Shown here piece after piece: positions 15,998 to 39,837 of a DNA stretch of 64,000 bases (position 1 is its first letter; every line of letters starts with the position of its first letter). The notes under the pieces are model-generated. The model was not told the DNA's origin. It did not search any database and saw nothing but the letters and a program-made list of their open reading frames with translations. The stretch comes from an uncultured virus (IMG/VR IMGVR_UViG_3300033075_000216) (lineage: Duplodnaviria > Heunggongvirae > Uroviricota > Caudoviricetes), in IMG/VR virus record IMGVR_UViG_3300033075_000216; one strand, given 5' to 3'. Position numbers and translations under genes: made by a program.

Positions 15998-16162
15998 ATG
16001 ATTACAGTTTTCTTTGTTTCGCTATTACTACTTCTATACATTGAAGGTAAAAAAATCAGTAAAAACAAACCTTTGGCTTGTAAAATGCATGTTTGGGTGA
16101 GAATGGGTGAAAATACGGACATGTCTTACATGCAATGCTCTGTCTGTAAGCTAACTCTCTAA
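15998..16162 (+). CDS. Small membrane-anchored Zn-ribbon-like protein (54 aa, not in ORF track)
   Basis: MITVFFVSLLLLLYIEGKKISKNKPLACKMHVWVRMGENTDMSYMQCSVCKLTL; TM segment plus CxxH/CxxC. Confidence 0.45.
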   Translation: MITVFFVSLLLLLYIEGKKISKNKPLACKMHVWVRMGENTDMSYMQCSVCKLTL

Positions 16163-16603
16163 GGAGAAATGCATCCCGTCCTTACGTTTAAAATTGCCGC
16201 CCCATGTAAAGCCTGCGTCAGTGAAACACTTAACAAACGCATTAGAAAGCACTGGAGGCTTTCCTAGAGGGTTTTCCTTAGCGTTGATGTCTATAGCTAG
16301 GCCCCAAGAATGAAACGACTGTTGGCCCGGCAGAGCCCTTACATCGCGGATATTAAAGCAGCCATCGAAGGTCTTAAGCTCAGACAATAGGTTAGAAGCT
16401 TTTAATAAAGCCAAGGCCTTCATAAGCATAGGAGACATGTCTTTATTGATGTATATCTTTGTTACAGGCTTTCCTGTAGCAGAGTTAATCCAAGAAGCAC
16501 CATACTCAGCTGGTATTACTTGTACCATCATCCACTTAGCTTCATTGGACCATTTACCATCCACTATCTTACCGTAACGCTCTTCAGCTTCTTTTTGCGT
16601 CAT
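16151..16603 (-). CDS. Endolysin, M15-family peptidoglycan peptidase
   Basis: Motifs R...SFHSWGLAIDIN and WGG..KRKDGMHF. Confidence 0.85.
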   Translation of the reverse strand: MTQKEAEERYGKIVDGKWSNEAKWMMVQVIPAEYGASWINSATGKPVTKIYINKDMSPMLMKALALLKASNLLSELKTFDGCFNIRDVRALPGQQSFHSWGLAIDINAKENPLGKPPVLSNAFVKCFTDAGFTWGGNFKRKDGMHFSLES

Positions 16604-16985: not shown

Positions 16986-17018
16986 AAAAAAGAAGAGGAG
17001 GCCGAAGCCTCCCCTCCC
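16986..17018 (-). terminator. Rho-independent terminator after the major capsid gene
   Basis: GGGAGGGGAGGC-TTCG-GCCTCCTCTTC followed by a T-run. Confidence 0.85.
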
Positions 17019-17032
17019 AACAACTATCCTAA

Positions 17033-19808
17033 TTAAGGAATGTTGAATCCAGTGATCAATACGTTCTTACCTGGTGTAGAGGTGAAGATCGCGGTGTCGC
17101 ACCATGTACGTAGTTCATACGCAGCAGAGTTTTCAACATCGCGGAAGAATTCGCCTTCAGCAGCAGGACGCTTGAAAGTGATATCGCTAGAGCCAACTCT
17201 TACGAAGTCTTTCAAGTGCAACAAGAAGCAATGTCCTTGTTTTACGTAGATAGAAGGTTCGATTTCGATAGCGCCAGAAGCTGCGAAGAATCGCAACTTA
17301 CGGAAACCGTTCTCGCCTTCTTCTTTATCGTAGCTGTGGTCATACTTACGAAGAGCAGCTTCGTCAGCAACCAATACGCCGAAGATTTTTGGGTTTAGCA
17401 AGCACTTAACGTCGCCGTCCAAACCTTTCTCGATAGCGCGAGCAATAGCCAACTCGATCTTCTCTAGAGACAAGTCTCCAGAAGTCGCGTAGGTGTTACC
17501 TTGCCACAAGCTATATTGAGAAGCATCGATGCCGAACAAAGATCCAGTGTTAGTGATGATTTTGTGGATACCAGCAAATTCATTACCATAAGCACCTTTG
17601 AAGTACATCTTGTCAGTAGCAACAGTACCTACTGGAATAGCATCCAAGTAGATAGCTCTGTTGTCTAGGTCTGATCTAGTTACGTTTGCGTTGCCGCGAA
17701 GAGTACCAGAAGAAGATCTAACTTCTACAGGCATACCTTCAGCGCCAGCCCAAATACCAGCAGCCCATTCAGCAGCAGTGATAACAACGTTATCAACGTT
17801 TACAGTGCTGATTTCGCCCAAGCCCATTTGTCCGTAGATTGACTCTACTTCCAAACGCTTGTGCATAGATTGCAACATGTTTGCAACGATGTGTTTTGTA
17901 GCATCTTCGAAAGCACGTTGTCCACCGCCAGCAGCACGGCTAGCAGCAGTAAGGCCTAACATTGAACGCATTACGCGTGGGTTTCCAGATACTTGAGCGT
18001 TTTTAACAGCTCCAGCAACAGGAGGGTTTAAGTTAACATTTTGTTATCGCAAGGGCTCTTTATCCCCTGCTTCAATATGTTTCCATATTGATCGGACTAT
18101 CTCATCATCCCGAAGGATGCCGATGGCTCGTGGGTACATTTTATTCTATTTCTAGTTTCAGTACCTAGTCTCTGCGCGTGTTTAAAAATTTTACTTTTTA
18201 AGCTTCCGCTCTGATTAGCTTAGTTTTCACTTTAGCTTTCCAGTTTTTCCATCAGTTATTCAAGAGATATTTCTATCTCAGGGCACTAAACTGTTCCGTC
18301 CATGCATCATCGTCTGGTCCGCCGTATGACACTCCGTGCTCTGACTGGAGGATCACTGGCTGGTTGTATTTATTCATTTTGTTATCGCAAAAGCTCTTTA
18401 TCTTTTGCTTCTAATAATTACTTATTAGATCAGACTATATTTTAAACCTTTGTTTTAGAATCCCGAGTTCTTTTAGCATTCTTTTCACTGCTGTTGCAGA
18501 TATTTTATATTTAGCTGCTATTTTGTAAGAACTGTTTAGTTCTTGATAATCTTTTTTTAATTGATCATCAGATACTGGATTTTCTATTTTTTTATTCAAA
18601 GGTTCCGTCGGACTCGTGGGTATATTATATTCTAAATTAGAAAACTTTCTTATATACTTTTGTTCTAAAAATTTAAACTTATTTTTTATGGAAACACACT
18701 CTGGAAGTATTTTTCTAAGTTGAGACCACAAAACCATACTGTAAAATTGATTAAAAGCAATCTCGTTGTAATATTTTTTAGGGTATCTGCTTTTTACTTT
18801 TATCAAAGTAGATTCTACGTTTAAGTTTAATTTTAACCATTCTTGTATTTTTTTTACCTCTTCATCATTTTGATCATGTACACATAAAGTTAGGCTTGCC
18901 GTATTAACTATGTCATTTGTTTTAACATATCTTACGGTGCCATCATCACATAACCAGATTAGAAGTGCAAAAATTGGATGGTTTATATATTTTAAAAGAT
19001 CGGGTATTTTTTTATGACTATTTAAATAAACTTCTTCTCTAAGGTGCTTTATTCCACTATGACAAAACCAAGTAGATTGGTTCTTTTTTACACAAAGTCT
19101 AGCGGGGGATTTTCTATATTTATTTAAAATATCAAGTTTGAACTGGTTATAATCTGTTTGTTTATGACCATGTTCCACAACTAATTGTCCTTTTTTTGTT
19201 ATAGTTCCGTCGCCTATTGCTAAGATAGCTATAATTTCTTGTAAAGTCATTTTAGTTGTATTATATCATTATTTTCTATTTAGTGTCAATACCTAGTCGT
19301 TGCGGCTGGCAGTACCTTTAATTACCACCTTCACCTCGAATTGCCCTATATATTCAACCGTTTATATAGGGGATTTTCGTTTTTTCCGACGTGCTAATGT
19401 TAGATTACTCTAACAAAGGGCAAATACTTTACCTGGTTGTTTATCTTTCGCTACGAAAGGGATCATTTTATAAAGCTTAACACCATCTGGTATTAAGCAC
19501 TCTAGTGTATCAGCATATCAATCTTGTTATCGTATGAGCTTTTTATCTCATACATCAATGTATTACTACATTGTTCAGACTATATCTTCAACCGTGTTAG
19601 GGTTGTCGCGGCCTCTTGGAGACATTATTTCAGTCTCTAGTCGTTGCGGCTGGCTTGCGCCTTCACCTCGAATTTCCCTTACCTGTCAACTTAATAAGGA
19701 GTTTTTCGTTTTTTCCGCGATACAGCCTAGGCTATTACTAACCTAGCGGGCAAATGCTACCTGCTTGAATAAACCATTTAGAAGTGTTGTTGTATTTGCA
19801 GTTGACAT
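17033..19808 (-). CDS. Major capsid protein, spliced from 4 exons: 19808-19759, 19518-19431, 18374-18302, 18036-17033 (404 aa)
   Basis: Exons sum to 1215 nt in one frame: MSTANTTTLLNGLFKQV-YADTLECLIPDGVKLYKMIPFVAKDKQPG-NKYNQPVILQSEHGVSYGGPDDDAF-NLNPPVAGAVKNAQVSGNPRVMRSMLG... Lies downstream of the scaffold gene and ends in a strong terminator. Confidence 0.85.
18037..18301 (-). ncRNA. Group I intron 3 in MCP (265 nt, no ORF)
   Basis: Exon ends in U, intron ends in G; R-like CGCAGAGACTAG, S-like GAGATAGTCC; P3 CTGATGG/CCATCGG; P1 GCAU/GUGC with U-G. Confidence 0.9.
18435..19250 (-). CDS. LAGLIDADG homing endonuclease (two-motif type) with C-terminal HTH-like tail
   Basis: Motifs IAILAIGDGTI and ALLIWLCDDGT; AT-rich; lies inside the intron. 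Confidence 0.85.
   Translation of the reverse strand: MTLQEIIAILAIGDGTITKKGQLVVEHGHKQTDYNQFKLDILNKYRKSPARLCVKKNQSTWFCHSGIKHLREEVYLNSHKKIPDLLKYINHPIFALLIWLCDDGTVRYVKTNDIVNTASLTLCVHDQNDEEVKKIQEWLKLNLNVESTLIKVKSRYPKKYYNEIAFNQFYSMVLWSQLRKILPECVSIKNKFKFLEQKYIRKFSNLEYNIPTSPTEPLNKKIENPVSDDQLKKDYQELNSSYKIAAKYKISATAVKRMLKELGILKQRFKI
19260..19289 (-). promoter_or_regulatory. Sigma-70 consensus promoter inside intron 2, upstream of the endonuclease
   Basis: TTGACA-N18-TATAAT with an extended TG; ATG follows 9 nt after the -10. Confidence 0.7.
19519..19758 (-). ncRNA. Group I intron 1 in MCP (240 nt, no ORF)
   Basis: R CGCAACGACTAG, S AAGATATAGTCTG, P3 TCGCGG/CCGCGA, P10 AGCAU/AUGCU, terminal G. Confidence 0.9.
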
Positions 19809-20428: not shown

Positions 20429-21364
20429 TTATCCGCGAAGGAAATCGCTCATTGAAATCTTCTTTTCGCCTTTCTTAGGCTTCTCTTCTGCCTTCTCACC
20501 TGTCGGTAAGATGTTAGAAGCGGTTTGAACAGGTTTTCTCATAGCAGCTACTTGTTTCTTTCGCATACCATTCAAACGCTCTTTTCCTAAGATAGCTTCA
20601 ATCACTTCATCCGGAGACGAAGCGAAATACTTCTTGATATCTTCTTCTAGTTCTTTTTTAACTAGAGGAGCCAAGTCTTGTGCAGAAACGTCTAAGTTAT
20701 TGTCTAACGCAACACTTAGCATTTCAGCAAACTTTTTAACAGCATATGGAGTGGTGGGGATGCCACTAGACTCTAAAGCAGAGATAACATCGTTTTGATA
20801 CTTCTCTTCGTACTCTTGTTGGAGTCTTTGAAACTCAGCATCCTTACGACGCTCTTCTTCATCTTTTTGCTGTTTACGAATTTCTTCTAATTCTTTTCTA
20901 GCTTTCTCAAGCTCTCTCTGTTCAGGAGATTTCTGTTCTTCTTCAATCTTTCGTTGTAGAAGTTTTACAGCCCATTCTTCTGGGTCCATGCCGATTTGTC
21001 TCATCACTTCTTCAGGAGATTCTTGTAAAGCTTTAGCAATTTGTTCCACTTGTTTCTTTAATGTTGCTGATTCTTGCATACGTTTTTGTGAAACTTTTGC
21101 CAGTTGTAAACGTTTAACAATCTCTTGCTCGTTGTCTAAATCCAACTCGTCTTCAAGTTCTTGTCCGTCCACTTTAAGCTTAAACTTTTTAATGTTTCTT
21201 TTAATTTCTTCTTGCTTCTTCTGTTCAGCTTTGCTAGGCTGTTCTTCAGAGCCGCCTTCTGAGGCAGAGGCTTCTAAGGCCTCGTTATTTGAAGATTCCA
21301 CTTCACTTGATTCTGAAGATGGAGCTTCCGCAGCAGGAGCTGCTTGTTCGTTATTATCAATCAT
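20429..21364 (-). CDS. Capsid scaffolding protein
   Basis: Acidic N-terminus, 'KFKLKVDGQELE' motif, coiled coil; upstream of MCP. Confidence 0.75.
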   Translation of the reverse strand: MIDNNEQAAPAAEAPSSESSEVESSNNEALEASASEGGSEEQPSKAEQKKQEEIKRNIKKFKLKVDGQELEDELDLDNEQEIVKRLQLAKVSQKRMQESATLKKQVEQIAKALQESPEEVMRQIGMDPEEWAVKLLQRKIEEEQKSPEQRELEKARKELEEIRKQQKDEEERRKDAEFQRLQQEYEEKYQNDVISALESSGIPTTPYAVKKFAEMLSVALDNNLDVSAQDLAPLVKKELEEDIKKYFASSPDEVIEAILGKERLNGMRKKQVAAMRKPVQTASNILPTGEKAEEKPKKGEKKISMSDFLRG

Positions 21365-28717: not shown

Positions 28718-30799
28718 TTATTGTTGATTTAAAAGAACGGGGTTTTGTTGAAAAGGTGCGGGAGGAGAGGGTATGTTAGGAAGATTCACAGGCTGTTCCA
28801 TCCCAGGTCCCATTATCTCAGCTGGCATTTGACCTGCTTGTACCGCTTGCATTACAGAAGCATTCTCAGAAGACAAGCCTTGTGCTTGTTGAGGAGCTAC
28901 TTCAGAAGGCTGAGGTGCGTTCTGTTGAGGAGGAGGGATCGGAACTTGCCCAAGTACTTGAAGAAGTCTAGGATCAGTGTTCTGCAATAAGTCAATATGG
29001 TCGTATATGTGAGTAAGAACGTTTTGAACAAGAGTAGGATCTTTCTTAAGCTCTGGATCAAACAATACACTTTGATGACCTTTAATGTGTTTAACGTGAT
29101 CTTCAATAGCAACAGCCATAGGAAGATCGCCTGAGATGAGTTTTTCATTCTCTGCCCTGATTAACAATACTTCTTTTTGGACGTCTTCTGTAGCAGTTTC
29201 TAGTTTACCTGTATTAACAACAGATAGATACTGAGCTGGATCTTTTATTAGCTGATATTGTAAAAGAGACTCTGCAAGCTGAATCTTACCGCTGGTTGTG
29301 CGAGAAAGAGGATTAGCCATGTCTACAACAACGCGAGTAACGTTGCTTAGATCGTCGGCACTAAACTCTTTTACGTTAGTGTTGTTAGACACGCCTGAGA
29401 TGAGTGTTATGGTACGCTTCGTTACAGCGAAATCTTGCAACATCTTAACAAGAGATGTTCCCATGTCTTCAATAAGCTTAATATATTGAGATTGGAGGTT
29501 AGAAGCAAACTGAAGAGCTAAGCTTTGCACTAAGGCAAGAGCAGCGCCAGACTTAAGAGAAGACTCTGGATTACCGCGAGCAACACTGTTAACACCTGAA
29601 AGAGTTTCCATGTCTTTAATCATCATCTGAAGAAAATTAAATATCTCTGGAGGTGTGTTTGTTAAGTTTAAAGATTCAGGACGACCTGCGTTGGAGTTAC
29701 CTTCAATAACGTTAAGTCCGCCCTCAAGAGCGTTGATGGTAATGTCTGCTCCGCGAGGAACATAAATATTTTGTACACCAAACGCTGATTGGTTAGTCAT
29801 GATAGTACTATACAAACCGTTCACCGCCTCTTGAAGAGGAAGAAGATCGAACATAGGAGTGTATCCGTACGGAGTTCCTAGTAAGTCAGAAGGAGCAATG
29901 CGCAATACTGGAATAGTACGATATGGCATCTCTCCATCATAAAGAATAATGTCTTCTGCTAAGAACATCATGTAACGTCCTTTAGGCATGAATTCTGTAC
30001 GTTTATGATAAAATTCATATACAGCAACGTCGTCTGTATGTTCGGCAGTGAAGCCTGTAGAAAACTTAAACAAAATTTGATCTGACTTAGTTTGAAGACC
30101 TTTGATTTTGTTTTCAAGCTCTGGATAGCGAGCAGCTAAGTCATACTTATTCTTAAAGCTTCTTGTAACAACCCAGTCATGGTTCTGATCTTCTTTATAA
30201 GAATCAAACACTACGTCGAACGGAGAAAGATTGGTGAATTTAACGTCACCTTCGTACATAGGTTTTTCTGGGTCTAAATCTTCAGTGATAGAACCGTCAT
30301 CGTTTTGAATTTCTTTTGTTTCGTAGTCGTATATCTCACCGGCAATAGCGTCCCATTCCATCTTAATGAAACCGGCGCCGAATACGATAGCTTGTTCTAC
30401 AGCAGTTTTAATATAATATTCCATACGCTTCTCGCGCATGTAGTAGTCTAAGATACCGTTTGCTAGGATAGTTTGTACCTGAGACTTATAATCGGTGTTT
30501 ACAGCTCTAGCTTCCATAGCTGGTCTAGAAGAAGTGGTCATTACCAACATGTGCTGGGCTATGTTGCGGTAGTGATTTACTGGTATTTGAGCATACTCGC
30601 CTTGTTCGCCTCCGAACGTAATACTATGACCATATTGAACGTTGTCGTAGTAAGAACCGTAATAGGCTTTATACGAAGAAATCATCTTTTGTAGCCATCC
30701 GTTGGTCGAATGGAAGTTGTAGTATTGCCCTGCTCTTTGTAGAATAGTGGAGGCGCATTTCTGAGGTTCTTGGGCAGCGAAGTATTTAAATTGACTCAT
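28718..30799 (-). CDS. Portal protein (P22-like)
   Basis: 693 aa, directly after terminase; 'YGYTPMFDLLPLQEAVN', 'LSGVNSVARG...SGAAL'; Q/P-rich tail. Confidence 0.85.
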   Translation of the reverse strand: MSQFKYFAAQEPQKCASTILQRAGQYYNFHSTNGWLQKMISSYKAYYGSYYDNVQYGHSITFGGEQGEYAQIPVNHYRNIAQHMLVMTTSSRPAMEARAVNTDYKSQVQTILANGILDYYMREKRMEYYIKTAVEQAIVFGAGFIKMEWDAIAGEIYDYETKEIQNDDGSITEDLDPEKPMYEGDVKFTNLSPFDVVFDSYKEDQNHDWVVTRSFKNKYDLAARYPELENKIKGLQTKSDQILFKFSTGFTAEHTDDVAVYEFYHKRTEFMPKGRYMMFLAEDIILYDGEMPYRTIPVLRIAPSDLLGTPYGYTPMFDLLPLQEAVNGLYSTIMTNQSAFGVQNIYVPRGADITINALEGGLNVIEGNSNAGRPESLNLTNTPPEIFNFLQMMIKDMETLSGVNSVARGNPESSLKSGAALALVQSLALQFASNLQSQYIKLIEDMGTSLVKMLQDFAVTKRTITLISGVSNNTNVKEFSADDLSNVTRVVVDMANPLSRTTSGKIQLAESLLQYQLIKDPAQYLSVVNTGKLETATEDVQKEVLLIRAENEKLISGDLPMAVAIEDHVKHIKGHQSVLFDPELKKDPTLVQNVLTHIYDHIDLLQNTDPRLLQVLGQVPIPPPQQNAPQPSEVAPQQAQGLSSENASVMQAVQAGQMPAEIMGPGMEQPVNLPNIPSPPAPFQQNPVLLNQQ

Positions 30800-30818: not shown

Positions 30819-32258
30819 CTATAAAGATTTTTTTGGTTTAAAGATTCCTCTAATTTGACTGTATAGAGGGTTTTCACCAGCTTTATCGTTCCTGAAGAAC
30901 CAGCTTTGCTTGTCTTTAAAGTCAAAGTTGGCTGGATAGGGGTTCTTATTCCACTGAATGTTACGACACATGTAGATAAGCGCAGCAAGAGCGTCATAGT
31001 GGCCGCCGTCAGCTGATTTATCAAATACGCGTGAGTTTCCCGTCTTCCAGGTTGCTGATTTTAAGTGTGATATCAAATACTTACACTTAGGGCTTATTAT
31101 TATCTTCTTACTGTTAATCAAGACACGTACGTTATTTACAGCAGCTTCTAGATCATCTTTCTGTGTAGGCATGAATAAAACGTTATGAAGCCTGTGCATA
31201 TCGTTTATAAAGAATAAGTTGGTGTCTGATATACGAAGATAAGGTTCTTTCTTCTCACCTGTAGAAGTGAAATAAAGAAGAGAATTCTCCTTATTTATTA
31301 TAGCCTTAGCTAGCACCTCGGTATTAAAGTTGGGCGTTAAGTCCTTATTCATTACAAGCTCATCTTCAATAACAAGCCTGCTATGCTTAAAATCCATATA
31401 ACCGAATAATACTGCCGTAAAGTCCTTAAAACCGATATCGGCAGCTACGTAATAATCGAAGTATGGAGGTCTATTAACATCCTTAACACAATCCATCTCC
31501 ACTTCAGGGCTAAATTCTGGTATAACGCTACTATTAACGTCTACAACCATCTCAGCTAGATACTCTCGTCTAAACTCGTTATTCTTCATCCCGCCTTGAT
31601 ATTGGGAGATAATCTCGTTAACCTGAGCAGGGCTAAAACGTGTATTGTCAAAGATTGTCTTCTTTATTAAAGTATTGTCGTGCATCGCTTCTTTTACAAA
31701 CTGAGCGAAATCGTGACCTGGAGATCTTGGAGGAGTAGATGATAAGATTAGTTTTCCACCTGTCGTAGAAAGAGTGGGGAGAAGCACAGATCGCACCGCA
31801 TAAGAAAGATCGTCACAGAAGCCAGCCTCATCCACGATACATAGATGTGCAAGACCGCCTCGAAGATTCTCCACTCTTCCGTTATCAGTTCCTGCAAGCT
31901 GTATCTCACTACCATTAGGAAATACATATTTAGCGTCGTTCCTGTTGTAAGTGGGGCGTAAGGCTTTAGGGCAGTCTTCTAATATCTGTCTAAAGATGGG
32001 TTGAAGAATAGCTCTAATCATCTTTTGAGTAGGACAGAGATACTTAATGACAGTTCCAGGAGAAGCAAGACATGTTTCAATAGCCACTACAGAGAGTGTG
32101 TGAGATTTGCCAAAACGTCGAGAGCAAAGCCATGTAACAACACGCTTTTGACTTTTTTTATATAAATCGTACATCTCTTTCTGACCGGCATCTAGCTTCC
32201 AATGAAGGATGCCTTTTGCCCAGAGATTACTGATTGCTTGTTTCTTTGATATCTGCAT
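30819..32258 (-). CDS. terL: Terminase large subunit
   Basis: Walker A SRRFGKS, Walker B CIVDEA, coupling motif SSTP, nuclease motif AADIGFKD. Confidence 0.92.
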   Translation of the reverse strand: MQISKKQAISNLWAKGILHWKLDAGQKEMYDLYKKSQKRVVTWLCSRRFGKSHTLSVVAIETCLASPGTVIKYLCPTQKMIRAILQPIFRQILEDCPKALRPTYNRNDAKYVFPNGSEIQLAGTDNGRVENLRGGLAHLCIVDEAGFCDDLSYAVRSVLLPTLSTTGGKLILSSTPPRSPGHDFAQFVKEAMHDNTLIKKTIFDNTRFSPAQVNEIISQYQGGMKNNEFRREYLAEMVVDVNSSVIPEFSPEVEMDCVKDVNRPPYFDYYVAADIGFKDFTAVLFGYMDFKHSRLVIEDELVMNKDLTPNFNTEVLAKAIINKENSLLYFTSTGEKKEPYLRISDTNLFFINDMHRLHNVLFMPTQKDDLEAAVNNVRVLINSKKIIISPKCKYLISHLKSATWKTGNSRVFDKSADGGHYDALAALIYMCRNIQWNKNPYPANFDFKDKQSWFFRNDKAGENPLYSQIRGIFKPKKSL

Positions 32259-37673: not shown

Positions 37674-38747
37674 GTGAATATAAAAGAAGTTCAAGAAGCA
37701 GTTAGGTTAATCCACGAGCATACAAACGTTACACCTATTCTAGTGGGACATCACGGAAAAGGTAAGTCCCAAGTTATACAACAAATTGCAAAAGAGGACG
37801 GCGTTGGTTTTATTGATTTGCGTCTAAGCACACAGGAAACCGGCGATCTTCTAGGTCTTCCTGAAATTATTCGCGACCACGAAGGTACTCCTGTTGCTAC
37901 AACGTTTATGAAGCCAAACTGGTTTCCAACAGAAGGACGCGGCATATTGTTCCTAGACGAGTTCAATCGTGCTAAGAAAGATGTGTTGCAGTCTATGCTT
38001 CAACTTGTTTTAGATAGACAATTTCACACACATGTTCTTCCTGAAGGCTGGAAGATTGTTGCTGCGTGTAATCCTGAGACAGATGACTATCCTGGTCTTG
38101 CTATTGATGACAAAGCCCTTATCGATAGATTCTGTTACATTAAATTTGAACCCACTGTAAACGAGTGGTTGTCTTTTGCTGAGTCTCAAGGCGCAAGCCC
38201 TGCTATCTTAGGCTTTATTCGTAAACAGCCTGAGATGTTAGAAGGTAAGCTTGAAGAGTTTTCTTTAGATTTCGTAGAGCCTTCTAGACGTTCTCTTCTC
38301 ACTCTAGCAAAACTACACAACAAGATTAAAGACAATCCTCTTTTTAAAGAAATTGCTTTCGGTATGATCGGTATTACAGCAACTGCTGCTATGATGAAAC
38401 ACATTCAAGAAAACGAAGTGTCTATTAGTGGCATGGAGCTACTTGCTAACTATCACGGAAATAAAGAGCTTATTGAGAAGCTTGTGACAAACTATCGAAT
38501 GGATGTCCTTAATACAGCAATTGATGAGATTGTTGCTAAACAAGACATCATAATCCAACATCACACTAATAATCTAAAACCTCTACTACTCGCTATTCCA
38601 GCCGAAGTGGGAATTAAACTATATAACCTATTAGAGAACATTCTCATGGAAGTAGAAAACGAAGATATTCTTTCCTACTTTAACGACGATGATTTGGTAA
38701 ACCATTTCGCCGCTGAAGCCGAGAAGACAGATGAGCCTCAAGAATAA
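37674..38747 (+). CDS. MoxR-like AAA+ ATPase
   Basis: Walker A GHHGKGKS, Walker B LFLDEFNR, IVAACNP, DKALIDRF. Confidence 0.85.
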   Translation: MNIKEVQEAVRLIHEHTNVTPILVGHHGKGKSQVIQQIAKEDGVGFIDLRLSTQETGDLLGLPEIIRDHEGTPVATTFMKPNWFPTEGRGILFLDEFNRAKKDVLQSMLQLVLDRQFHTHVLPEGWKIVAACNPETDDYPGLAIDDKALIDRFCYIKFEPTVNEWLSFAESQGASPAILGFIRKQPEMLEGKLEEFSLDFVEPSRRSLLTLAKLHNKIKDNPLFKEIAFGMIGITATAAMMKHIQENEVSISGMELLANYHGNKELIEKLVTNYRMDVLNTAIDEIVAKQDIIIQHHTNNLKPLLLAIPAEVGIKLYNLLENILMEVENEDILSYFNDDDLVNHFAAEAEKTDEPQE

Positions 38748-39837
38748 GTTTCAACAGGCGCTTTATAAAACTGTAAGTGATTATCCATATTACGGAAGTG
38801 TTATACTAAATTTACCAATTGAGTTTACAGATAAAATTCCCACTATGGGCATTACAGCCAAGGGTAAACTTAAACTCGTTGTTAATTTAAATTTTCTAGA
38901 ACCTTATTCCATAGAAGATTGTGTTAAGTTCATCATACACGAAGCTCAGCATATAACAAACGGACACGTCCTTCGTGGAAAAGATCTAAACCATCAACAG
39001 TTTAACATAGCGGCGGACATTGCAATAAATCAGAATATTAAAGATATGCCAGACACAGGGGCCAATGAAGTAATGTTTGCAACATTAAACAACGCTAAAA
39101 AGCATAGTCCTGATTTGCTACCAAATAAGCCTGCTGAGTATTATTACAACAGTATGCCCGAAAGCACTACTGTCGAATTAACCACATCTGACATTCACGA
39201 TTGGCTAGAAAGTGACATGATCGATGAAGAGATGAAAGAGCAGCTTCGCGACATACTAAAGAAATCAGAAGAATATGCTAAGGCTGTTAGCTCGTCAGTG
39301 CCTCCGGAACATCACACAACTATAAACGAACTAGCTCCTCCTAGACTATCTTGGAAAGCTCTTCTAAGACGCTTTGTCACTTCTGTTACAAGCATTGAAA
39401 CAGAAGAAACTAGGAAAAAACGTCACAGACGCTATGGAACACTTCACCCAGGGAACAAACGTCTGGAGAAAGTAAATCTCGGTGTTGCTGTGGACACTTC
39501 TGGCAGCATATCTGACGAAGAACTTCAAATGTTCATGTCTGAGATAAACGCCATTCACAAGCAAGGCGTAGAAATTACCCTCATCGAATGTGATGCTGAA
39601 GTGAGAAACGTATCTAAATTTAGTCCTAAGAAGAACAAAACCTTCAGCGGACGCGGAGGCACAGCCTACCAACCTGCCTTTGATAAAGCTAGAGAACTTG
39701 GCGTAGACGCTATTGTGTTCTTTGGTGACGGAGACAGCGCAGACACTCCCACTAAACCACGCTATCCGGTTCTTTGGGTTATGGTTAGAGGCAACGAACC
39801 GCCAGTGACATGGGGACGTGTGTCGAAGCTGTCTTAA
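38731..39837 (+). CDS. Metallopeptidase-VWA protein (DUF2201-like)
   Basis: HEAQH, FNIAADIAIN, MIDAS DTSGS, GRGGT, FGDG. Confidence 0.85.
   Translation: MSLKNKFQQALYKTVSDYPYYGSVILNLPIEFTDKIPTMGITAKGKLKLVVNLNFLEPYSIEDCVKFIIHEAQHITNGHVLRGKDLNHQQFNIAADIAINQNIKDMPDTGANEVMFATLNNAKKHSPDLLPNKPAEYYYNSMPESTTVELTTSDIHDWLESDMIDEEMKEQLRDILKKSEEYAKAVSSSVPPEHHTTINELAPPRLSWKALLRRFVTSVTSIETEETRKKRHRRYGTLHPGNKRLEKVNLGVAVDTSGSISDEELQMFMSEINAIHKQGVEITLIECDAEVRNVSKFSPKKNKTFSGRGGTAYQPAFDKARELGVDAIVFFGDGDSADTPTKPRYPVLWVMVRGNEPPVTWGRVSKLS

Follow-up and report, generated by a model that had tools for sequence, protein, structure and literature searches.

What breaks up the gene for the major capsid protein in an uncultured tailed phage? 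We analyzed a 64,000-nucleotide (nt) stretch of DNA, hereafter "the window," from IMG/VR record IMGVR_UViG_3300033075_000216, and focused on a minus-strand capsid gene that appears as four exons separated by three putative group I introns. Exon 1 (19759..19808, 50 nt) starts with the ATG at 19808, holds codons 1–16 plus 2 nt, and aligns with the N termini of uninterrupted homologues. It is followed by intron 1 (19519..19758, 240 nt), which has no open reading frame (ORF) and has a predicted core of helices P2–P9.2 with a P7.1 hairpin; exon 2 (19431..19518, 88 nt); intron 2 (18375..19430, 1056 nt), which carries a putative endonuclease ORF; exon 3 (18302..18374, 73 nt); intron 3 (18037..18301, 265 nt), again ORF-less; and exon 4 (17033..18036, 1004 nt including the stop codon). 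Exons 2 and 3 are delimited by the spliced join and the homologue alignment, and exon 4 by a match to PHROG 14242 and by its homologues. Introns 1 and 2 are drawn from their helices and from profile matches, to which minimum-free-energy (MFE) folding adds for intron 1 and an intron-less allele for intron 2; intron 3 is drawn from Rfam family RF00028, MFE folding, helices, and a profile.

A Single 404-Codon Frame Encoding a Major Capsid Protein

Excision of 19758-19519, 19430-18375, and 18301-18037 from the minus strand leaves 1215 nt, i.e., 404 codons plus a stop. A preliminary description of the window, made from its letters alone, had proposed these three removals and the resulting exons of 50, 88, 73, and 1004 nt, and its coordinates are right to the base. 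It had also proposed that each exon before an intron ends in U and each intron in G, which is the case at all three sites: the 3′ ends of exons 1 to 3 read ..CAGGT, ..CAGGT, and ..TGCAT, each with T as the last base, and those of introns 1 to 3 read ..ATTG, ..AATG, and ..AATG. Intron 1 interrupts codon 17, intron 2 falls between codons 46 and 47, and intron 3 interrupts codon 71. By direct reading, an AAGGA-type ribosome site lies immediately 5′ of the capsid ATG at 19808, and translation of the unspliced sequence would meet an in-frame TAG five codons inside intron 1. We also considered the locus as an intein, a frameshift, or a read-through gene; these readings are ruled out by the in-frame TAG together with the ribozyme cores in the inserts.

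Is the spliced product a major capsid protein? By itself, exon 4 has a match to PHROG 14242 (major head protein; E = 1.4e-11), and a search of 5.8 billion proteins returned 1811 relatives; of the 120 listed among these, most are 402–420 amino acids long and 14 are shorter than 390. The spliced product aligns with 38 homologues without gaps at the three junctions (FKQ/VYAD, QPG/NKY, and DDA/FNL, with the slash marking the join), and the uninterrupted homologues used for comparison (P0004–P0039) are 404–410 amino acids long. The residues flanking the joins belong to the invariant positions of the family, which in this upstream part are N11, F14, K15, G46, Q51, E58-H59-G60, and D69-A70-F71. For P0004, a homologue that lacks interruptions and is 74% identical to the spliced product, an AlphaFold model has a mean predicted local distance difference test score (pLDDT) of 71.9. 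Searched with Foldseek, this model matched 302 PDB chains at E ≤ 0.001, headed by the phage capsids SU10, Pa223, and A-1(L) (best match, SU10 7z45_C; E = 6.7e-11, probability 1.0). Because this model matches solved HK97-fold capsids, the alignment spans the junctions, and PHROG 14242 is matched, the gene is an HK97-fold major capsid gene. Both checks suggested in the preliminary description—a profile or structure search for the HK97 fold and an alignment with intronless homologues across the joined exons—thus came out in its favor, the former by way of the P0004 model. The capsid protein has no Pfam match, and a sequence-profile search of PDB with the capsid family gave nothing meaningful. Nor was a cultured relative of the capsid found: tblastn of a capsid homologue reached 28% identity at best, and the sole match in a megablast search of the locus against cultured phages was 70 nt of intron.

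Group I Ribozyme Cores in the Three Inserts

Do the inserts have the architecture of group I introns? We laid out the core helices by hand and checked their pairing by script; P3 and P7 are hand-assigned and were not predicted by RNAalifold. In all three introns P2, P3, P4, P5, P6, P7, P7.1, P8, P9, and P9.2 are fully paired, with P4 and P7 alike among the three and the remaining helices differing in sequence. The core elements read earlier from the letters—GACTA...TAGTC as the R/S pairing (i.e., P7), a P3 pairing, and a related 3′ end—were borne out in every intron. MFE folding recovered P2, P4–P6, P7.1, P8, P9, and P9.2 of intron 1 (z = −3.67) and the nested helices from P2 to P9.2 of intron 3 (z = −5.02). 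Applied to five ORF-less introns (two from the window, the terL intron of Streptococcus thermophilus phage 2972, and two from L082, a related capsid locus), RNAalifold found P2, P7.1, P8, P9, and P9.2 and predicted 35 pairs, 21 of them with compensatory change; MAFFT misaligned P4–P6 of intron 1 relative to the intron 3 types, and the compensatory-pair count therefore excludes P3–P7. In a scan of the region with RF00028, for which Rfam has a curated gathering score of 50 bits, intron 3 scored 55.7 bits (E = 9.5e-13) and was the only intron above that score.

Profile searches point to the same three places. A profile of the 3′ domain of this intron lineage has three matches in the 64-kilobase (kb) window, all within the capsid gene, and three such predicted domains in one gene are far beyond chance. 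Profiles that leave the window out, built solely from the introns of other phages (including the phage 2972 terL intron), match these three sites only in the 64 kb, and their matches end 1–6 nt from the predicted 3′ splice sites. The E values are 7.7e-34 for intron 3, 8.1e-10 and 2e-12 for intron 2, and 1.7e-8 and 1.6e-10 for intron 1.

The Endonuclease Gene of Intron 2

The ORF within intron 2 (18435..19250, minus strand) encodes 271 amino acids and matches Pfam PF03161 (LAGLIDADG_2; E = 7.4e-13, 49.2 bits, cut-off 25). It contains two LAGLIDADG motifs, in which G13-D14-G15 and D102-D103-G104 are invariant among three homologues, and these mark it as a predicted gene for a two-motif LAGLIDADG homing endonuclease. 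From its start in the P7.1 loop, the ORF spans the 3′ strands of P7.1 and P3 and both strands of P8, and ends with a TAG stop within the 3′ strand of P7. Its overlap with the ribozyme core occupies 18623-18433 on the minus strand. The leave-out profile also matches weakly at 18635-18609 (E = 0.35), in agreement with the presence of core strands inside the ORF. Because two endonuclease homologues of approximately 40% identity (P0123 and P0124) retain both the core-encoded stretch and the terminal Ile-stop, the overlap appears to be maintained; the same homologues also retain a conserved C-terminal stretch, which we read as a putative helix-turn-helix. Translation and ribozyme folding of the same stretch of intron 2 may compete.

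A sigma-70-type promoter-like site (TTGACA-18-TATAAT, a 12/12 match with TG before the −10 element) lies in the P7.1 loop at 19260..19289 on the minus strand, 9 nt upstream of the endonuclease ATG. It is the sole 12/12 match among nine promoter-like sites in 3.5 kb, a stretch for which shuffled sequences also average nine sites. The site suggests a nearly leaderless endonuclease transcript, independent of the capsid message. A similar arrangement, TTGACA-17-TATAAT, occurs within an intron of a related capsid locus (L056, about 2397-2431).

Presence and Absence of the Introns among Close Relatives

Are the introns fixed in the phage population? We aligned contigs from four DNA sequencing runs to the locus, treating the parts that they leave uncovered as uninformative. 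One contig of 27.6 kb is identical to the locus and is a possible origin of the window. Another, from a different study (X3; 6.1 kb, approximately 97.5% identical), runs through exon 1, intron 1, and exon 2 as far as 19429, continues for 46 letters, and then follows the window from 18326 onward. Intron 2 and exon 3 share AA as their first two bases; the 46 letters plus these two ambiguous bases equal the 48 nt by which exon 3 extends ahead of 18326, so that intron 2 is absent from this contig, with borders precisely where predicted. It retains introns 1 and 3, and its intron 3 is approximately 660 nt longer than that of the window, perhaps with room for a separate ORF. In a contig from a third study (X7; 858 nt), intron 2 is present with approximately 56 nt replacing the 842 nt that hold the ORF. 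The gene of one homologue (P0003; 85% identical, 370 amino acids) reads through junctions 2 and 3 without introns.

More broadly, the 5′ region is uninterrupted in 71 of 80 IMG/VR loci of the capsid family and interrupted in the other 9, and most Joint Genome Institute (JGI) loci are uninterrupted as well (at least 2 of 45 of these metagenome loci are interrupted). These alleles indicate that each intron is optional in the phage population and that forms with and without an ORF exist side by side, the pattern that homing elements would produce. The preliminary description had suggested that the two ORF-less introns may rely on the single endonuclease, by co-conversion, to spread. This is possible, with the neighboring sites 88 and 73 nt away, but nothing requires it: the X3 contig has no intron 2 and yet keeps introns 1 and 3.

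Relationships and Distribution of the Intron Lineage

How are the three introns related to each other and to those of other phages? In their 5′ halves, introns 1 and 2 are 69% identical, and either is 53–55% identical to intron 3, while the 3′ domains of all three are 73–77% alike; the 3′ signature GATAAAGAGC..CGATAACA marks the lineage. Introns 1 and 2 are both preceded by CAGGT and have the guide region ATTTGCCC in common. Taking different genomes of the capsid family together, lineage insertion sites are found at codons 17, 46/47, 60/61, 71, ~74, 79/80, and 83/84, and P1 fits the local exon at each. One lineage may have moved repeatedly among sites in the first 84 capsid codons, its guide re-tuned each time, a scenario that we raise tentatively and do not favor. 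The similarity of introns 1 and 2, with the same CAGGT and the same guide, would be the expected trace of reverse-splicing transposition, a possible but somewhat doubtful origin, rather than of endonuclease homing. If such guide-directed transposition did take place, the capsid family would be a natural record of group I introns colonizing new sites.

Which genes host this lineage? A scan of IMG/VR for the 3′ signature matched at least 126 stretches, from which we sampled 82 matches in 80 loci with flanks, kept the 69 with a downstream open frame of at least 50 codons, and named the downstream genes with PHROGs. The downstream gene encoded a tape measure protein in 20 of the 69 and a major head protein (of several unrelated families) in 16; ATPases accounted for 3, terL for 2, DNA polymerases for 2, and others for 8, and the remaining 18 had no match. 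Near-duplicate contigs inflate some of these classes. The preliminary description started from the premise that nucleotide-metabolism, polymerase, terminase, or lysin genes are the typical hosts of phage group I introns, a premise outdated in view of these 16 major head protein genes and of the capsid-gene introns described for crAss-like phages (PMC7886860).

Tape measure genes, which are rarely mentioned as hosts of phage introns, were the commonest host in the sample (L129, L131, L133, L143, L151, and 15 further loci), with the reservation that a single sample series contributed many of these loci, which may be near-duplicates. A separate observation concerns one 279-kb IMG/VR contig, in which five copies of the signature lie within 4.5 kb (L197–L200; 73558-78000), one of them with a head-protein exon downstream; the contig probably holds a jumbo-phage capsid gene in which at least five introns are inserted.

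Other members of the capsid family are interrupted in comparable ways. In L056 (1218-4006), introns follow codons 14 (with a LAGLIDADG ORF), 50 (with a GIY-YIG ORF), and 83 (also with a GIY-YIG ORF), and the one after codon 83 belongs to the lineage of the window; because L056 has three introns, the presence of three at the 5′ end of this capsid gene is not unique to the window. L082 (3405-4997), with a 66%-identical capsid, packs three introns into ten codons—at codons 71, ~74, and 79/80—separated by exons of approximately 9 and 17 nt, the middle intron carrying a GIY-YIG ORF. Judged by the protein alignment, the 5′ exon of that middle intron seems to end in A instead of U. L052 has two introns, after codons 14 and 60. 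Several introns of such relatives reach or come near the Rfam threshold, with L076 at 97.3 bits.

Genomic Neighborhood of the Capsid Gene

On the minus strand, the window has, in order, terL (30819-32258), the portal gene (28718-30799), an ORF at 20429-21364, the capsid gene, and an M15 peptidase gene (16151-16603). The ORF at 20429-21364 encodes 311 Glu/Lys-rich amino acids without a family match, and we read it as scaffold-like. Just past the capsid stop, also on the minus strand, lies an intrinsic terminator-like hairpin with a T run (16991..17018; 12 pairs, 7 of them G-C). This hairpin produced weak matches to the Rfam families L20_leader and a Brucella small RNA in an E-value scan, which we rejected as spurious. 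The plus strand holds the replication module, and no tRNA genes were found in the window. Also on the plus strand, at 37674-39837, an ATPase gene (phrog_1297) overlaps by 17 nt the ORF that comes after it, which encodes 368 amino acids and matches phrog_1314 (labeled HNH endonuclease). Although phrog_1297 ATPases host the lineage in 3 of the 69 sampled loci, the intron signature was not found at 37674-39837.

Selfish Introns, Timing Devices, or a Dead Gene Copy?

What do these features amount to? The core helices, the profile matches, the exon joins, and the LAGLIDADG match support the central claim of the preliminary description, namely that three group I introns, one of them with an endonuclease gene, divide a major capsid gene. 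We consider it very probable that three related mobile group I introns, selfish rather than regulatory, interrupt the capsid gene of this approximately 80-kb uncultured tailed phage. The capsid precursor messenger RNA would lose all three by guanosine-initiated self-splicing, to yield the 404-amino acid protein. Intron 2 would spread by endonuclease-driven homing, with its endonuclease gene expressed from its own promoter-like site, and introns 1 and 3 would represent ORF-less forms. All three would come and go in the phage population as selfish elements, with no role as a regulatory device. Selfish elements of this kind are already known, and genes of this class commonly host them.

Several observations weigh against this reading. 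The preliminary description had suggested a cmscan check with group I intron models, and this succeeded for intron 3 only: in the region scan with RF00028, intron 2 gave a partial match of 22.1 bits to its 3′ part, its 816-nt ORF breaking the model, and intron 1 gave no match at E ≤ 10. A default scan of the whole window with Rfam gathering scores returned 0 matches, a blank that we attribute to a filter effect because the region scan then recovered intron 3. A P1 helix with a U-G pair had earlier been claimed at each intron. The U ends the 5′ exon at all three sites, and intron 3 forms four pairs from the U-G at the homologous guide position, but introns 1 and 2 have only three contiguous pairs (GGU/GCC) at the guide position homologous to that of the S. 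thermophilus phage intron. Intron 1 reaches six of seven pairs with one A-C mismatch, and related introns in other loci have P1 helices of 7–8 pairs. (Automatic P1 picks for introns 1 and 2 proved to be chance pairings within P2/P3 and were set aside in favor of the homologous guide position.) On the protein side, the fold comparison used the model of the 74%-identical P0004 in place of the spliced protein of the window, and residues 41–80 of that model, where the sites of introns 2 and 3 fall, have pLDDT below 50.

Might three splicing steps instead delay or limit capsid production, so that the introns are more than neutral selfish DNA? All three must be removed, and the CAGGT and guide region common to introns 1 and 2 make it conceivable that exon 1 is at times joined to exon 3, which would skip 88 nt and shift the frame. 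Yet close relatives lack intron 2 (X3), introns 2 and 3 (P0003), or all introns (P0004 and most homologues), and both the sets of introns and their sites vary by genome, a pattern to be expected of mobile parasites but not of conserved control. The proposal in the preliminary description that splicing may time or limit the output of capsid thus finds no support, and we consider it unlikely.

A still smaller chance attaches to the view that one or more of these genuine introns has lost the ability to splice, which would make this capsid copy dead (i.e., a defective phage or a decaying allele). The very short P1 of introns 1 and 2 and their lack of recognition by Rfam would fit such decay, and an endonuclease ORF that passes through the core helices of intron 2 could hinder folding during translation. 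Decay is hard to reconcile with core helices that are fully paired in all three introns, with exons that are intact and conserved, and with the retention of introns 1 and 3 in 97.5%-identical contigs from other studies; the arrangement in intron 2 is likewise maintained, as the core overlap is retained in the ~40%-identical endonuclease homologues. Finally, gene callers yield precisely the 312-amino acid protein (P0002) that starts at M17971, but it is extremely improbable that this is the true capsid and the upstream pieces mere remnants, since the 93 upstream residues rank among the best conserved of the family and are present, in frame, and stop-free in the exons of the window.

In practice, gene callers give the capsid as the 312-amino acid fragment, and capsid-based classification or counting of phages mishandles the family unless the introns are removed. 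Together with its relatives, the locus makes up a compact collection of related group I introns, inserted at many sites close to one another, with intron-less and ORF-less alleles both found in near-identical genomes, and is suited to the study of intron gain, loss, and retargeting. Knowledge of how group I introns work is unchanged by it; its value lies in annotation and in a data set on intron mobility.

Comparison with Known Systems

Capsid-gene introns and multi-intron phage genes are already in print, and the novelty of the locus is modest. According to Yutin et al. (2021; PMC7886860), crAss-like phages of the Delta and Zeta groups have group I introns in their capsid genes, and a Zeta-group capsid ORF is broken up into five pieces. 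Like these, the window has group I introns in the major capsid gene of an uncultured phage; unlike these, its capsid comes from another phage group and an unrelated sequence family of approximately 404 amino acids. The crAss-like introns were found via protein domains, whereas cores, exact junctions, and intron-less alleles were worked out at the present locus. Phage introns, none in a capsid gene, are mentioned in the available portions of PMC6669764, PMC8541194, PMC13346280, PMC9769974, and PMC8557907. Jumbo gut phages have a mean of 18.5 group I introns per genome.

Among cultured phages, S. thermophilus phage 2972 and a further 46 phages of this host have a terL intron of the same lineage as the window introns. 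In phage 2972 it lies between the terL pieces orf3 and orf4 and scores 53.3 bits with Rfam; its guide region and 3′ tail are similar to those of the window introns, and 70 nt of its 3′ domain are 87.5% identical to intron 3. It differs in being a single ORF-less intron, in another host gene and another phage family.

The td, nrdB, and sunY introns of phage T4 (subgroup IA2) appear to resemble the window introns in being compact, with an extra hairpin between P7 and P3, and in introns of this type the endonuclease gene, where present, occupies a peripheral loop and has its own promoter. In intron 2 of the window, by contrast, the ORF runs over two loops, P7.1 and P8, together with the intervening core strands. 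A further parallel is orf142 of Staphylococcus phage Twort, a late gene that Landthaler and Shub reportedly described in 1999 as holding, close together, three self-splicing group I introns with short exons between them, and for which exon skipping is said to occur. Unlike orf142, the gene in the window, known from sequence alone, is identified as an HK97-fold capsid gene and has a LAGLIDADG ORF in one of its three introns.

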